Under the pieces are notes generated by a model. It ran no database searches, was not told the origin of the DNA, and saw only the letters and a list, made by a program, of their open reading frames with translations. From IMG/VR virus record IMGVR_UViG_2648501920_000010: a stretch of DNA of 14,075 bases, one strand, 5' to 3'. The DNA comes from a virus (Duplodnaviria; Heunggongvirae; Uroviricota; Caudoviricetes). The position numbers and the translations under genes were made by a program. Of this stretch, positions 7,598 to 13,026 are shown piece by piece (the first letter of the stretch is position 1; the number at the start of each line of letters is the position of its first letter).

Positions 7598-9451
7598 TTA
7601 TGATGATGCCGGTGCATTTATCTCCAGCACCAGACTTTCTATCTCAACGCCATACGCTGCATTTTTGGTAATATCCGTCAGCGTCAGCGCATTCAGCCCC
7701 AGTGTCAGACTGTCTTTTATGACCTGGAATGCCGGGCCAGCCACTCCATTCAGTTTCGGAGTAACCGTGGCACTGCCGGCGGTGAACACCAGCTCCAGCG
7801 TCTGCCAGTCGTTACTGTAATTCCCGAACTCGCCCAACTTTGTGTTTCCTGCTTTCTTGTGATGCATCAGATTCAGTTTGCCGTCTGTGGTCTGGGTGAA
7901 GAACGACATCAGGAACGGGTTACCAGTCCCGGTCATCGCCACGACGTCAGGTAACGCTACATCGGTATACAGATAAATTCCCAGACCGAACTGGTTGTTG
8001 GTCAGTGCGCCTGACAGTCGAAACTTACAGCTCAGTCTGCCACCCCGTGTCAGCAGGGAGACTGCGTCATCCACCGGGCGCGTCAGGGACCAGGCTTTAT
8101 TGCTCTGCTTGGTGATCTTAAATACACCATCTGACAACTGAATTCCGCCATTCTTAATGCTCCAGCCCTGCGCAGCAGCGTCTCCGGCTGTCGGCAACAG
8201 GGAGATTGTGCGTATGGATGCATCTTCAGACGGCCCCGATGGCGTGTCGCCGCCGGGCGAGGCTTTGATTTCCGGTGCCTTACCACTAATGAAGGCTAAG
8301 GTGCGACCGGCTACGTTCAGAATAGCCGTTGCCATACGATCGGGAATAATGCCACGACGCGCCCATGAGCTGAAATGCGTCGGGCGATTTGATGATACCC
8401 AGTTTTTGTTCGTTCGGGATGCCGAACCGTAATAACCAGACCCGGCAATATCAGGATCTTCTGACGGGTTGTTTGTCGGTGTATTAACTCCGCTACCATC
8501 GGTCATAAAGGGAACAAAATAAATCTGCTGGGATTCTTTACCTTTATATGCACCATATACCACTTCATATTGCGTACCGTGTTCTTGTTTCCACGCGTAT
8601 GTCGTGTCGCCACAAATCCAGGGGACTGATGCCGGACTTCCACCGTGACACTGCGCCGCCAGCCCGGCAAGGTCAGCACGGAACTGCTGTACCATTGCAA
8701 GAAATGCTGCTGGCTGCTGGGCGTAACTGGCATTCGTCATATCGAATTCCCCCTGCATCCAGCATATCGCCAGCAAAACGTTTTTCGGGTTTTTCTGCAA
8801 TGCTGCCTTCGTGCGGAAAAGCAGATCCTGATATAACGGCTTACCCACTCCCCAGCGAGCCGAATCCTGACTGGCTCCCGTGGACTCGCTGAATGTCCCC
8901 TCCGTGCCCTGGGTGAATGCCGAACCACCACGACAGCATGGTACCAGCAGGATCCCCGCATTATTAGGGATATACGGAAGCAGTTTTTTGGCAATATGTA
9001 AGCCCTGTCCGACACAGCCGTACTGCCCTTTGCTCAGGTCAGCCCGGGGATGGTTAATCGTACTCATATCCTGAACATCATGCAGACAATGGTCAGCAGG
9101 AATGATGTCGTTAAATACGCATACTTCACCACCGGGAGTCACTGTGTTACGACGGGCCAGTTGCTTAATGCGCGGATGGGGCGCATCGTATGAATCCGGA
9201 AGCGGAAGCCCTTCACCGTAAGCCATGGCATTGGATTGCCCGGCCAGTACGATGACGTAGTACCACTCCGGCTCAGTTGCACCACTGACGACCACATCAC
9301 CTTCTGCTGCAATCGCCTGCATCAGGGTATAAGGGGTTATGGCCACCGGACTACCAAACGGCTGCCAGCCCTCCTTCAGTTTTTGTGTCAGTCGTTTCGC
9401 AAGGTCTGACGGCGATGCCGCCCTGACCACGTCATAGTGTTTAAATGCCAT
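7598..9451 (-). CDS. nanS-p: Prophage-encoded sialate O-acetylesterase (NanS-p-like): N-terminal DUF1737-like region, SGNH/SASA esterase core, C-terminal domain of unknown function
   Basis: 617 aa; GGGAGGA SD. GQSN motif (VIVLAGQSNAMAYGEG) near residue 70, characteristic of the 9-O-acetylesterase (SASA) family. Position directly upstream of the holin matches the NanS-p locus of EHEC lambdoid prophages. Confidence 0.8.
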   Translation of the reverse strand: MAFKHYDVVRAASPSDLAKRLTQKLKEGWQPFGSPVAITPYTLMQAIAAEGDVVVSGATEPEWYYVIVLAGQSNAMAYGEGLPLPDSYDAPHPRIKQLARRNTVTPGGEVCVFNDIIPADHCLHDVQDMSTINHPRADLSKGQYGCVGQGLHIAKKLLPYIPNNAGILLVPCCRGGSAFTQGTEGTFSESTGASQDSARWGVGKPLYQDLLFRTKAALQKNPKNVLLAICWMQGEFDMTNASYAQQPAAFLAMVQQFRADLAGLAAQCHGGSPASVPWICGDTTYAWKQEHGTQYEVVYGAYKGKESQQIYFVPFMTDGSGVNTPTNNPSEDPDIAGSGYYGSASRTNKNWVSSNRPTHFSSWARRGIIPDRMATAILNVAGRTLAFISGKAPEIKASPGGDTPSGPSEDASIRTISLLPTAGDAAAQGWSIKNGGIQLSDGVFKITKQSNKAWSLTRPVDDAVSLLTRGGRLSCKFRLSGALTNNQFGLGIYLYTDVALPDVVAMTGTGNPFLMSFFTQTTDGKLNLMHHKKAGNTKLGEFGNYSNDWQTLELVFTAGSATVTPKLNGVAGPAFQVIKDSLTLGLNALTLTDITKNAAYGVEIESLVLEINAPASS

Positions 9452-9568
9452 GAATCCTCCCGGGCGGGATAATGTTGTGAGTCAGATAAGGAGCAGGCTG
9501 AAGTCCGGAAGTTACAGGACAATGGCAGAAGGGAGACTACAGCCCGCAATTCGAAAAAGACCGCGCAG

Positions 9569-9598
9569 TTGCGCAGAGTGATTACTATGGGGTATTAT
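9569..9598 (+). promoter_or_regulatory. Candidate sigma70 promoter (TTGCGC - 18 bp - TATTAT) pointing away from nanS-p
   Basis: Hexamers read directly from sequence; the spacer length and the terminator ~50 nt downstream make a short plus-strand transcript plausible. Confidence 0.3.
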
Positions 9599-9644
9599 TC
9601 GCCAGCTGAAATATTACTTCACGTTTTATTGTTTATTCCTTGCC

Positions 9645-9673
9645 GCCCGCGTCTCCCAGCGCGGGCTTTTTTT
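9645..9673 (+). terminator. Intrinsic terminator on plus strand (GCCCGCG-tctcccag-CGCGGGC + T7)
   Basis: Perfect 7-bp GC stem, 8-nt loop, followed by TTTTTTT on the plus strand. Confidence 0.6.
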
Positions 9674-9681
9674 GTCCATAA

Positions 9682-9913
9682 GAAAGCCCCTCCGGAGAGG
9701 GGCTAAAGCCGCGTATCTGTATCATCATGCACATGGTGCCGGGTGCCTCCCGGTGAGTTCAGCCCGGTGCCACTAAACCCGCGTCATTCTCGTTTTGATA
9801 ATCAGAGATTATACCGTCACCAGTCGCCCCTCCGCTCAGGGGGATTCACCATGCGAAATTTTTTTAACAAATGCCCAGTCTGACAGGCAACTGTCAACTT
9901 ACTGAATTGTGAG
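9682..9913. repeat. Copy A of a degenerate ~220-bp direct repeat
   Basis: Shares ordered blocks with copy B: gaaagcccctccggagaggggct; catggtgccgggtgcctcccggtga; gcccctccgc(t/a)cagggggattcaccatg; ttttaacaaa; ctgaattgtgag. Confidence 0.6.
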
Positions 9914-9948
9914 CAACATAGCATTTAACGGGGAACCTGTTTTCTGCA

Positions 9949-9977
9949 GTAAAAAGGCCCACCGGAGCGGATGGGCC
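9949..9977 (-). terminator. Intrinsic terminator-like hairpin on minus strand
   Basis: Plus strand aaaaaGGCCCA-ccggagcgga-TGGGCC; on the minus strand the 6-7 bp stem is followed by TTTTT. Confidence 0.45.
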
Positions 9978-10168
9978 TGGAAGGATAGCGGTCATGTGAT
10001 GCCGGTTTCCCGGTAACTCAGCACCGGTATCTGAGTCAACGTTTTCTCTACTGGGTCATTTCCGATACGCCCTGCCTGCTGACAGGCTTTCATCACATCT
10101 GAAAATATAGCACCCTGACTGATACTGTAGTACCTAAGGTTCCAGAAACTGTGATGTATCCGGCACAG

Positions 10169-10381
10169 AAAAGCCCCTCCGGAGAGGGGCTGGAGAGTGG
10201 CGCTATGTGCCATTGCATGGTGCCGGGTGCCTCCCGGTGAATTCAGTACCAGCACCTGAATCCGCGATTATCCCATATACCTACTCGCTGATTGCCCCTC
10301 CGCACAGGGGGATTCACCATGCCAGTTTCTTTTAACAAACTCCCCGCAAACCAGACAACAGTCAACCGCCTGAATTGTGAG
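10169..10381. repeat. Copy B of the degenerate ~220-bp direct repeat
   Basis: See copy A. Identical 20-bp hairpin agcccctccggagaggggct at 10172..10191 versus 9685..9704; the other blocks are in the same order with indels. Confidence 0.6.
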
Positions 10382-10387
10382 ACATTT

Positions 10388-10410
10388 AAAAAAAGCCCGC
10401 AAAAGCGAGC
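10388..10410 (-). terminator. Intrinsic terminator immediately after the tRNA cluster (minus strand)
   Basis: Minus strand gctcgc-tttt-gcgggc followed by TTTTTTT, starting ~16 nt past the 3' CCA of the last tRNA. Confidence 0.6.
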
Positions 10411-10425
10411 CAGGGAAAATAAGTG

Positions 10426-10502
10426 TGGCGCGTTGTACTGGATTCGAACCAGTGACCGATTGCTTAGAAGGCAATTGCTCTGTCCGGCTGAGCTAACAAC
10501 GC
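10426..10502 (-). tRNA. argO: tRNA-Arg (anticodon UCU)
   Basis: Hand-folded 77-nt cloverleaf GCGTTGTTAGCTCAGCCGGACAGAGCAATTGCCTTCTAAGCAATCGGTCACTGGTTCGAATCCAGTACAACGCGCCA: 7-bp acceptor stem, D arm GCTC/GAGC, anticodon loop CUUCUAA, canonical GGTTCGAATCC T arm, encoded CCA. Gene symbol by analogy with the Stx-phage tRNA cluster. Confidence 0.8.
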
Positions 10503-10515
10503 AGGATACAGATAA

Positions 10516-10593
10516 TGGACCGCCTTCGGGGACCCGAACTCCGCGCAACCAGCTTCGAAAGCTGGCGCTCTTTCCTGATGAGCTAATGGCGGT
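10516..10593 (-). tRNA. argN: tRNA-Arg-like (anticodon loop UUUCGAA, anticodon UCG), atypical
   Basis: Sequence CCGCCATTAGCTCATCAGGAAAGAGCGCCAGCTTTCGAAGCTGGTTGCGCGGAGTTCGGGTCCCCGAAGGCGGTCCA folds as a cloverleaf with a good anticodon arm (CCAGC/GCTGG) and D arm, but has one mismatch in the acceptor stem, one in the T stem, and a T loop TTCGGGT (G where A58 is expected). Boundaries +/- 2 nt. Gene symbol by position only. Confidence 0.5.
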
Positions 10594-10599
10594 ATGTGA

Positions 10600-10675
10600 T
10601 GGTGGCCCTTGCTGGATTTGAACCAGCGACCTGGCGATTATGAGTCGCTCGCTCTCACCACTGAGCTAAAGGGCC
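10600..10675 (-). tRNA. ileZ: tRNA-Ile2 type (anticodon CAU; could formally be Met)
   Basis: GGCCCTTTAGCTCAGTGGTGAGAGCGAGCGACTCATAATCGCCAGGTCGCTGGTTCAAATCCAGCAAGGGCCACCA: canonical cloverleaf, anticodon loop CUCAUAA, encoded CCA; closely resembles E. coli ileX/ileY-type tRNA from memory. Confidence 0.8.
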
Positions 10676-10724
10676 GGGAGCAGAATAATAATGGTGCGTA
10701 ATTAATTCTGCAATCTCATCCGTT

Positions 10725-11774
10725 TCAAACGATTAAATCCTGAACTTCCCTGACTGTCTGCTCAAAACGTCCGGTCTCCAGTTCAACGCCAATCGCACGA
10801 CGCCCAAGCGCCAGTGCCGCTTTTACCGTTGAACCTGAGCCCATAAAAAAATCTGCAACCAGGTCACCCGGACGACTGCTTGCGCTGATTATCTGCTGCA
10901 GCATTTCTGCCGGTTTTTCGCACGGATGTTTCCCGGGATAGAACTGCACCGGTTTATGTGTCCACACATCCGTGTACGGCACCTGCGCCGTCACACCAAA
11001 ATACCGCCGCAGATGCTTATATTCACTCTGCAGCTCCACATACTGCCGGTTCAGTGACGTATACGTATCCACCAGCTGGTGGTGGGGCTTTTCCAGTTCA
11101 CCGCGCTGATGTTTCTCTTCTGCCACCCGGGCAAACAGCGACTGTAATTTCAGATAATCGCTTTCGTTCGGTAGCTGCCACTGACTGGCACTGAACCAGT
11201 GCGACACCATGTTTTTCTTTCCTGTGGCATCTGCAATCTGTTTTGCCGTTATCCCCAGGGCAGCGCGCGCATCACGAAAGTAAGAAATCAGCGGGGCCAT
11301 CACATGCTGTTTCAGTGCACTGCCCTTCGCCGCATACCCGGCATCTTTCGGACGATACGGCCCCTGATAATGTTCCGCGAACAGAATGCGCTCTGTGGCG
11401 GGGAAATACGCCCGCAGGCTTTCCTTGTTGCATCCGTTCCAGCGTCCGGACGGCTTCGCCCAGATAATATGGTTCAGCACACTGAAGCGTTCACGCATCA
11501 TGATTTCGATATCAGATGCCAGGCGATGACCACAGAACAGGTAAAGACTTCCGACAGGTTTCAGCACCCGCCAGAACTGCGCCAGACACTGGTCCAGCCA
11601 CTTCAGGTAATCATCGTCGCCCTTCCACTGGTTATCCCAGCCCTCAGGCTTCACTTTAAAGTACGGCGGGTCCGTGACTATCAGGTCAACAGAATTTTCG
11701 GGTAACGACCGGATAAATTCCAGGCAGTCGGCGTTGATTAACTCACAACTGGATATTTTTACAGTATTAAGCAT
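10725..11774 (-). CDS. Orphan DNA methyltransferase, beta-class (N6-adenine or N4-cytosine)
   Basis: 349 aa. Motif IV DPPY (LIVTDPPYF) near the N-terminus and AdoMet-binding motif I FxGxG (DFFMGSGST) near the C-terminus, the circular permutation order of beta-class amino-MTases. No restriction endonuclease candidate nearby. Weak SD. Confidence 0.85.
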   Translation of the reverse strand: MLNTVKISSCELINADCLEFIRSLPENSVDLIVTDPPYFKVKPEGWDNQWKGDDDYLKWLDQCLAQFWRVLKPVGSLYLFCGHRLASDIEIMMRERFSVLNHIIWAKPSGRWNGCNKESLRAYFPATERILFAEHYQGPYRPKDAGYAAKGSALKQHVMAPLISYFRDARAALGITAKQIADATGKKNMVSHWFSASQWQLPNESDYLKLQSLFARVAEEKHQRGELEKPHHQLVDTYTSLNRQYVELQSEYKHLRRYFGVTAQVPYTDVWTHKPVQFYPGKHPCEKPAEMLQQIISASSRPGDLVADFFMGSGSTVKAALALGRRAIGVELETGRFEQTVREVQDLIV

Positions 11775-12336: not shown

Positions 12337-13026
12337 TTAATTGACTTTTGCAATATCTCGTCGTGAAAAAGTCGCTTTTTGTTGCGCTCTTATTTTCACG
12401 GTGCAAATCACAGATTCTCTATCGAGACTCTTAAAAATATCGCACATCTCACGCCAGTAGTTCGCATAATTATGGCTCCAGTTATCAGGCTTAACTCCAC
12501 ACAGTCTGGCAAGCTCCTGTCTCTGGTAGACCTCACACCCGGTAATCCATCCTCTGACATCCTGTGCCGCCAGCCAGATCAACTTCTTCACGCGCTCCTG
12601 CGTTTTCCCTGCAATTTTTCTGGTGCCGTACCGGGTTTTAAATTCATTCCACACCCACTGCGTTATCGCGATCTGATATTCCCAACAAATACTCCCGCTG
12701 TAACACCACAACAACCAGGCTTTATGATGTTCTTCAAGAGACAGAACAGCCCGCCGCCACGATGATGTCGAAAACTCAACCGGACTGACGAGAGGAATTG
12801 ACACCCCCTTCGCCAGCGATTGCTTTCCCGGGATTGGTGGATTATCCCGCGTTATCATTTTTCCAGTCACTTCATCGCGGTACCGGATTTTTTTACGCCT
12901 GTAACGCCCTGTATCAAACATGGCATTCTCCTGCCAGGCCTCAAGCTGCCCTTTTGTTGATCCACTCAAATCGGCGGTGGCAATCATGAGTTGCTCACGA
13001 ACAAACTGTAAATACTGGTTATTCAT
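12337..13026 (-). CDS. Putative late-gene antiterminator Q (assignment by synteny)
   Basis: 229 aa ORF directly downstream of rusA and upstream of a promoter/terminator pair and the tRNA cluster, the position Q occupies in lambdoid and Stx phages. I do not recognise clear sequence similarity to lambda Q; it may belong to another Q family (e.g. QuuQ/Q82-like). Confidence 0.4.
   Translation of the reverse strand: MNNQYLQFVREQLMIATADLSGSTKGQLEAWQENAMFDTGRYRRKKIRYRDEVTGKMITRDNPPIPGKQSLAKGVSIPLVSPVEFSTSSWRRAVLSLEEHHKAWLLWCYSGSICWEYQIAITQWVWNEFKTRYGTRKIAGKTQERVKKLIWLAAQDVRGWITGCEVYQRQELARLCGVKPDNWSHNYANYWREMCDIFKSLDRESVICTVKIRAQQKATFSRRDIAKVN

Follow-up and report, generated by a model that had tools for sequence, protein, structure and literature searches.

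The stretch in front of a prophage sialate esterase gene raises the question whether a small RNA is transcribed there against the late operon and, if so, whether that RNA is new, where it starts, and what it does. The window, by which we mean the whole 14,075-nucleotide stretch of viral DNA that was analysed (IMG/VR record IMGVR_UViG_2648501920_000010), represents the late part of a lambdoid prophage, whose late operon is encoded on the minus strand. The operon carries Q (12337-13026, minus), a DNA methyltransferase gene that occupies the moron position (10725-11774, minus), three tRNAs (10426-10675), and a nanS-p/SASA-family sialate esterase gene (7598-9451, minus), after which the holin and lysis genes are found. 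Two full copies and one degenerate copy of an STnc100-family sRNA are present as well (10161-10351, 9949-10122, and 9674-9883); the copy at 9674-9883 on the minus strand scored 165 bits with Rfam RF02076, and a match to the EcOnc05 probe is found in the second copy (10161-10351). The STnc100 family takes in EcOnc05, EcOnc27, and sRNA103, with PasD as a relative. The candidate sRNA is located on the plus strand, opposite the late operon, and converges on the terminator of the STnc100 RNA at 9674-9883, its convergent partner. As this minus-strand terminator begins only 11 bases past the T7 tract of the plus-strand terminator, the two terminators face each other.

The stretch 9440-10000 recurs at 100% identity in prophages of ExPEC and commensal strains (among them CE10, APEC O18, VR50, and ML35). 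The window therefore does not originate from an EHEC Stx phage, and the EHEC setting implied by the preliminary description of this DNA has to be replaced by that of an ExPEC/commensal-type prophage. The same description had stated that no plus-strand protein gene lies upstream, which was confirmed: only mechanical ORFs of 43-45 aa were found, and RefSeq annotates no gene there. A small protein encoded by the 45-aa ORF at 9569-9706 was rejected, since the ORF traverses the terminator and its internal ATG is missing in Sakai.

The preliminary description had called, from the sequence alone, an RNA of ~65 nt that starts at a promoter-like pair and ends at an intrinsic terminator. Both elements were placed correctly on the plus strand, with TTGCGC at 9569-9574, an 18-bp spacer at 9575-9592, and TATTAT at 9593-9598. 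The terminator (9645-9673) consists of the stem-loop GCCCGCGT/CTCCCA/GCGCGGGC at 9645-9666, with an 8-bp stem (7 of the pairs G-C) and a 6-nt loop, and of a T7 run at 9667-9673; it begins 46 nt after TATTAT, is presumed to be the 3' binding site of Hfq, and is the sole plus-strand terminator-like site in 8500-11000. One compensatory change in the stem, from G-C to A-U, was observed in two related loci (L048 and L102). The 69-nt RNA from 9605 to 9673 folds into the terminator hairpin alone (-17.9 kcal/mol, z = -2.96). The hexamers fared less well than the terminator. TTGCGC agrees with TTGACA at only 3/6 positions, the pair scores 8/12, which is below the threshold of the promoter scan, and the number of promoter-like sites above that threshold (2) equals what is expected in shuffled sequence (2.0). 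Taken alone, TTGCGC-18-TATTAT is no better than chance.

Comparison with published prophages showed that the locus is not new. Over 9340-9720 it is 93-97% identical to Sp4 and Sp15 of E. coli O157 Sakai (alignment A1, 93-94% identity) and to PP6 of EPEC E2348/69 (alignment A2, 97% mean identity). For the Sakai prophages Sp3, 4, 5, 9, 10, 11, 15, and 17, 'convergent sRNA pairs' have been reported at the site where morons insert, with the moron gene to one side and a conserved phage ORF to the other (Tree 2014; PMC4104026). Table S2 of that study lists EcOnc08 (Sp4, 1179938-1180010, minus), EcOnc21 (Sp4, 1180016-1180101, minus), and EcOnc42 (Sp15, 2924036-2924118, plus) as mutual homologues identified by Hfq-CRAC, with a Northern size of ~271 nt and, among these three, a flag for a Rho-independent terminator on EcOnc42 only (PMC4104026). 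EcOnc42 was later named as the sRNA 3' of stx1 (Sy 2020). In EPEC, a new sRNA, E2348C_1409.E2348C_1408.IGR, was assigned to PP6 at NC_011601 1444797-1444978 (minus, 182 nt) and noted as homologous to EcOnc08/EcOnc21/EcOnc42; it is not one of the five sRNAs validated by Northern blot in that study (Pearl Mizrahi 2021, Table S6B; PMC8550237).

The published signals could be transferred to the window. In reverse complement, the single 'EcOnc08/21/42' probe is an exact match to Sp4 and Sp15 on the strand that opposes the late operon. Its counterpart in the window is 9565-9599, which differs from it by 5 mismatches and holds both TTGCGC and TATTAT. Coordinates were fixed by sequence-bearing CLASH reads and by the 3' end of StxS: the read ATATTATTCGCCAGCTGAAA at 2924120-2924139 gives L002 = v1 - 2920979, while for Sp4 the old and new Sakai coordinates coincide. 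Converted in this way, the Hfq-CRAC peaks of EcOnc21/42 fall at 9508-9593 and that of EcOnc08 (73 nt) at 9599-9671. The 3' end of the EPEC sRNA aligns to 9673, i.e., to the last T of the T7 run, and one CLASH fragment terminates within the U-tract of the terminator.

The published RNAs and the window locus share the strand, the terminator, and a CCUUGCC seed; all are flanked by an STnc100-type RNA and the nanS-p 5' end and run against the late operon. They differ in the 5 probe mismatches, a G to A change at 9628, one base of the loop, and, within the 5' hairpin, an A.C mismatch, and the window prophage differs from the hosts of EcOnc08/21/42 in being an ExPEC/commensal element without stx and with the DNA methyltransferase as its moron. 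We regard the window locus as the same gene as EcOnc08/21/42 and E2348C_1409.E2348C_1408.IGR. A plus-strand sRNA ending at the terminator, as had been proposed, has thus been demonstrated in near-identical loci, by Hfq-CRAC and Northern blot in EHEC and by RIL-seq in EPEC, and the analogy drawn to EHEC prophage sRNAs was apt, as the locus sits in the same slot as AsxR and AgvB. The sequence-only call was right, but it is the rediscovery of a published sRNA and not a new gene. We estimate a probability of about 0.8 that the window encodes a homologue of this Hfq-dependent prophage sRNA, with 9569-9673 as its 3' half and with the start, extent, and action in trans described below. Transcript, Hfq binding, extent, and RNA partners were established in the homologues; the present analysis contributes the homology and the conservation of every element. 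What we infer is the identity of the promoter, the direction of regulation, and expression in the strain carrying the window.

While the 3' end agreed with the proposal, the 5' end did not. The EPEC extent (1444978->1444797) maps to window 9492-9673. In the CLASH data, an EcOnc42 fragment begins at 2924010 and an EcOnc21 fragment at 1180127, both of which correspond to window 9482 (Waters 2017; PMC5286369), a position 9 nt past the hexamer GATAAT (9468-9473). This hexamer belongs to a sigma-70-like site, ATGCCA-17-GATAAT (9445-9473, plus, 9/12 match), whose -35 element ATGCCA (9445-9450) shares bases with the minus-strand start codon of nanS-p and which is one of only two promoter-like sites in the region that were accepted by the scan. 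GATAAT is kept in 52 of the 55 EcOnc08-type loci that could be assessed and is also present in Sp4, Sp15, Sp5, and EPEC. ATGCCA-17-GATAAT is therefore the likely promoter from which the long sRNA is made. The CLASH 5' ends, 9 nt past a conserved GATAAT, place the RNA, 182-194 nt long, at about 9480-9673 on the plus strand, where it opposes the part of the late transcript ahead of nanS-p; the boundaries of the gene should be corrected accordingly. Against this promoter, its match to the consensus is only 9/12, and Sp5 has the same ATGCCA-17-GATAAT although no Hfq peak is listed upstream of AsxR there (Tree 2014, Table S2).

The size of ~65 nt is thus not borne out, the documented homologous transcript being about three times longer. 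Its published sizes disagree with one another: RNA-seq coverage gives 182 nt, the 5' ends of the CLASH fragments imply about 192 nt, and the Northern blot indicates ~271 nt. STnc100-type RNAs were sized at ~222-247 nt in the Northern study, compared to 191-206 nt by the Rfam model (Tree 2014; PMC4104026), and part of the gap to ~271 nt may therefore be systematic.

Three CLASH fragments (2924120-2924139, 2924122-2924148, and 1180016-1179993) cross the proposed promoter and start, the first of them being the read used for the coordinate conversion, which spans the proposed -10 and the start. Together with a probe that lies on the hexamers, they indicate that TTGCGC-18-TATTAT (9569-9598) is itself transcribed as part of the long RNA. 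Size and promoter were thus probably mis-assigned in the preliminary description. As the start of the documented transcript the pair does not hold, being internal to it; as a secondary promoter it is plausible by comparison with other prophages.

In the Stx2 phage Sp5, the block shared with the window ends with ...CCGCGCAGTTGCGCAG and continues as CCTTATGAATCCTGGT-TAAAAT-GATTT-CGATTATTAAAACGAG..., which is AsxR, an sRNA whose 5' end was mapped as a primary start by TAP-RACE (PMC4104026). The AsxR start has the layout TTGCGC-18-TAAAAT-5 nt-CGATT, with CGATT... 6 nt after TAAAAT; since TTGCGC is part of the shared block, the -35 element of AsxR is the same TTGCGC, used with the same 18-bp spacing. 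By direct analogy to the 51-60-nt RNAs AsxR, AgvB, and EcOnc03 from this slot, TTGCGC-18-TATTAT may be a working internal promoter for an additional, independent RNA of ~70 nt (about 9604-9673, plus), which would equal the 3' domain of the long sRNA and share its seed and terminator; its start is set 6 nt after the -10 after the model of AsxR. We consider this isoform possible, at odds of roughly one in three. The mapped AsxR start argues for it, as does the presence of a -10-like hexamer at exactly 18 bp from TTGCGC in all three types of cassette found at this site (TATTAT in 75/75 EcOnc08-type loci, TAAAAT in 43/43 AsxR/AgvB-type loci, and AAAAAT in the 1/1 locus of a third type, L075). A divergent EcOnc08-type variant (L033) with an AsxR-like spacer and another discriminator has retained TATTAT, CTTCACGTTTT, and the terminator. 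The EcOnc08 Hfq peak, listed apart from EcOnc21, fits the predicted short RNA almost base for base, but the long RNA, too, should give a peak over its terminator-proximal 70 nt. The sole published probe lies wholly upstream of the short form's start, so that this form would have been undetectable in the published Northern blot.

Several observations weigh against the short isoform. The promoter score is at chance level when taken alone, and while three CLASH fragments span the putative start, not one in the CLASH tables of Waters 2017 begins there. The coverage annotation in EPEC is one unit of 182 nt. Conservation of TATTAT may simply stem from its membership in the long RNA, and that of the junction could be accounted for by a hairpin, CUGCGCAACUGCGCGG plus UCUUUUUCG at 9561-9576, which a motif scan recognized as terminator-like on the minus (late) strand. 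Within the same 70 nt, a conserved single-stranded core, UUACUUCACGU, is found at 9614-9624 (plus), and its part CTTCACGTTTT is the one retained even in L033. One CLASH hybrid pairs TTACTTCACGTTTTGTTGT of this core with the ECs2692 mRNA, and the core is identical to nt 40-50 of Spot 42, which may be chance.

The junction hairpin, read on the plus strand, carries an A-tract and the TTGCGC hexamer, and 9561-9576 marks a mosaic boundary between a shared block and an exchangeable sRNA cassette. A pattern scan of IMG/VR for this junction identified 121 contigs, of which 75 carry a cassette of the EcOnc08 type, 43 of the AsxR/AgvB/EcOnc03 type, and 1 of the third type, two contigs being too short to classify. 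These findings suggest, very tentatively and with somewhat less assurance than the short isoform itself, an 'sRNA socket' in which two EcOnc08-type RNAs with one seed are nested, a long one of about 190 nt and a so far undetected one of ~70 nt. In such a socket, the upstream promoter half would come from the invariant junction with its A-tract, hairpin, and TTGCGC, and each exchangeable cassette would contribute a -10 placed exactly 18 bp on, an RNA body, and a terminator. The known cassettes are those of the EcOnc08 and AsxR/AgvB/EcOnc03 types and at least one more. [quoted passage not shown] The feature as such is real and already published.

The best-supported function of the long sRNA is one in trans, with support from interactome data alone (Hfq-CRAC, RNase E-CLASH, and RIL-seq in the homologues). 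The seed CCUUGCC (9638-9644, plus) is located directly 5' of the terminator stem, is the published seed, and is invariant in alignment A2. In RIL-seq of EPEC, the sRNA formed chimeras above all with the 5'UTRs of cfa (767) and dppA (197), its top partners, and also with a LEE gene and others (PMC8550237). The MEME motif of its targets, GGCAAGG/GGCAGGG, is complementary to CCUUGCC and was found in cfa, tir, pcm, emrA, a LEE gene, and the yagU IGR (PMC8550237). We predicted a 9-bp duplex between the seed and the cfa 5'UTR at -135 from the cfa ATG; its energy (RNAduplex), however, was no better than that of shuffled sRNA sequences, and RNAduplex with the full RIL-seq windows of cfa and dppA yielded only meaningless long-range duplexes. 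As the computed energy is at the level of the shuffles, the pairing with cfa and dppA rests on the RIL-seq chimeras. In the CLASH data, hybrids of EcOnc8/21/42 occur as single reads or pairs, and among the CLASH and RIL-seq rows listed, no sRNA partner of EcOnc08/21/42 appears.

Taken as a mechanism, transcription would most likely start at about 9480-9492 from the promoter ATGCCA-17-GATAAT overlapping the nanS-p start codon, run for about 182-194 nt opposite the Q-dependent late operon, and stop at 9673, head-to-head with the STnc100 terminator. The U-tail and the terminator hairpin would bind Hfq, and the RNA would act in trans, its single-stranded CCUUGCC pairing with GGCAAGG-type sites in mRNAs, chiefly in the 5'UTRs of cfa and dppA and, in EPEC, in LEE/effector mRNAs.

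The position of the gene also allows a role in cis, in which the convergent transcript and its terminator would mainly oppose the late operon in lysogens, by pairing or colliding with late transcripts that read through ahead of nanS-p and the lysis genes, the contacts in trans being secondary. Over about 190 nt, beginning about 30 nt upstream of the nanS-p start codon, the RNA is indeed a perfect complement of the late transcript, and the slot is always filled by an antisense RNA of some type. The stretch is rich in terminators, with 10 terminator-like sites compared to 2.6 expected (those on the late strand include 9704-9685, 9576-9561, and 7515-7487). Nevertheless, we consider this role unlikely, with odds of around one in eight: cassettes with unrelated bodies in the same slot (AsxR, AgvB) act in trans, the RIL-seq chimeras that are abundant and specific join the RNA to the mRNAs of unlinked genes, cfa and dppA, and the ribosome-binding site of nanS-p is not covered by the RNA. 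The fold of the minus strand is unremarkable as well (z = +0.98, no better than shuffled sequence), and we rejected a structured element on that strand. Far less probable still, and hardly to be expected, is that the window prophage makes no functional RNA at all and that terminator and hexamers are an inert relic of phage-module recombination. The region is a mosaic joint, and some copies of the cassette are damaged, but the copy in the window is intact in every element (both promoters, the seed, the 8-bp stem, and T7) and represents the second most common variant, shared by 9 IMG/VR contigs, and the cassette has been kept in 987 complete E. coli genomes. Action in trans by the long Hfq-dependent sRNA thus remains the preferred reading.

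No Rfam family was found for the plus strand at the gathering threshold, nor a true one at E<=10. OmrA-B (RF00079) reached 25.2 bits at 9585-9673 (threshold 40, E = 0.027), and the matches to OmrA-B, anti-hemB, suhB, and Arrc14 were all discarded as sub-threshold look-alikes of the terminator. Membership in the AsxR/AgvB families (RF02703/RF02702) was rejected, as zero matches were obtained at E<=10 in 9400-10450, while the control, AsxR in Sp5, scored 88 bits. The conserved 3' region of ~42 nt that characterizes AsxR and AgvB (GUAUCUCAUGC..UUGCCCGAACCCAYUCGGGCUUUU) is absent from the window cassette, and the bodies differ. AsxR, AgvB, and EcOnc03 nevertheless resemble the window RNA in their genomic slot: they occupy the same place in lambdoid prophages, opposing the late operon and converging on an STnc100-family RNA, behind the shared upstream block and TTGCGC with its 18-bp spacer, and like the EcOnc08-type RNAs they are Hfq-bound and end in a GC hairpin and U-tract. 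In contrast, the RNA body of the EcOnc08 type is unrelated, the documented RNA is about 3 times longer, and its partners are mRNAs (cfa, dppA), compared to a core sRNA for AsxR/AgvB, and do not point to a sponge. STnc100 (RF02076) is likewise an Hfq sRNA of the prophage late region and of the same locus, but as the convergent neighbour it lies on the opposite strand and is unrelated in sequence. PasD, the STnc100 relative, was dismissed because it belongs to that other strand. PasA of EPEC (EcOnc51/52), which is encoded downstream of the esterase gene, was dismissed since its probe has no match within 3 mismatches in the window, and HnrS (EcOnc10-12) because it maps elsewhere, in Sp9, Sp10, and Sp12.

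The leader of cfa controls cyclopropanation of the membrane and, together with that of dppA, provides the strongest RIL-seq partners of the sRNA. Several core sRNAs (RydC, ArrS, GadF, and CpxQ) act on the cfa 5'UTR by Hfq-dependent pairing in its long leader. EcOnc08-type RNAs differ from these in being prophage-encoded and unrelated in sequence. The dppA mRNA is also de-repressed by AgvB, through GcvB. As dppA is common to EcOnc08-type RNAs and AgvB, different cassettes of one slot may converge on the same host pathways.

The 114-nt cassette was detected in 987 of 5,426 complete E. coli genomes (about 18%), in 1-4 copies and at 90-100% identity, and was never annotated. An sRNA that is left unannotated in so large a part of the species and lacks an Rfam family is easily missed. 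Among species-representative genomes, the strict pattern gave 0 matches and the loose pattern 41, in unrelated phyla and at about chance level. Some copies are damaged, for example by an IS1 insertion in one contig (L094), and the stem is mismatched in Sp15 and in variants that end with GCGCGGGA. Of the phage records, 69 contain the complete cassette, with VT1-Sakai and several Stx2a and Stx2d phages among them; the classical 933W-type Stx2a phages match only up to about 9576.

On the late (minus) strand, the conserved junction that precedes the exchangeable sRNA cassette forms a terminator-like hairpin (9561–9576, with a tail extending to 9552; CUGCGCAACUGCGCGG + UCUUUUUCG), which is common to all cassette types. 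In identical bases, the opposite strand carries an A-tract and the TTGCGC –35 element, and the junction may therefore be functional on both strands.

Variant cassettes were found behind this junction in two IMG/VR contigs. In L094 (1212–1344), an EcOnc08-type cassette is interrupted after ...CACGTTTTG, and the interrupting sequence, GGTAATGACTCCAACTTA..., presumably represents a terminal inverted repeat of IS1. As both the seed and the terminator were lost through the interruption, this cassette represents a natural knockout. The second contig, L075 (4592–4724), holds a third cassette type in the same slot between the STnc100-type RNA and the esterase gene nanS-p (…TTGCGCAG-16 nt-AAAAAT-…CACGATAATAAAAATCCCTGATGTATATTCATGCGCCCCGCCCGCCACTCACTGCGGGCTTTTTTTT). 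In the block upstream of this cassette, the sequence has diverged and GATAAT is missing. The cassette may encode an undescribed sRNA.

The conserved core of the window's own cassette, UUACUUCACGU (9614–9624, plus strand), is identical to nucleotides 40–50 of Spot 42, a segment overlapping the unstructured region III of that sRNA. The spf sequence used for this comparison was verified in 5,425 genomes. Compared to shuffled sequences, the match reached P ~0.002, a value that holds for this pair only and is uncorrected for the choice of Spot 42 as the RNA to compare.

Aligned to the terminator of the window (9645–9673), the Sp15 copy of Sakai (L002, 3195–3222) shows a C-to-A change that leaves one stem position as an A·G mismatch. 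Among the listed Hfq peaks, Sp15 has just the upstream one, EcOnc42, and lacks a 3′ counterpart of EcOnc08; weaker termination or lower stability of the mismatched copy may be the cause. The EcOnc coordinates published in Table S2 of Tree 2014 follow the NC_002695.1 system. While both versions of the Sakai record are equal at Sp4 (1.18 Mb), NC_002695.1 runs ~135 nt lower than NC_002695.2 from Sp5 (1.27 Mb) onward, and this offset is needed for placing the sRNAs of that study on the current RefSeq record.

The convergent STnc100 family is present in the window as a tandem array downstream of the tRNA cluster, in which two full copies, scoring 136 and 165 bits against the family model, are accompanied by a degenerate one at 30 bits (10161–10351, 9949–10122, and 9674–9883, all on the minus strand), each with a late-strand terminator of its own. 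Sp4, Sp5, and EPEC PP6 contain one copy each.

Further along the late strand, a strong intrinsic terminator with a 12-bp stem and a T-run (7487–7515, minus strand) occupies the interval that separates the nanS-p stop codon from the holin gene; PasA-like sequence was absent from this interval. Q-mediated read-through of this terminator would also be required for expression of the lysis genes. The lysis/Rz-distal part of the prophage additionally harbors an IS3-family insertion sequence (3944–4324, plus strand), whose ALIL frameshift pseudoknot was detected at 4225–4324 (RF01497, 76 bits).
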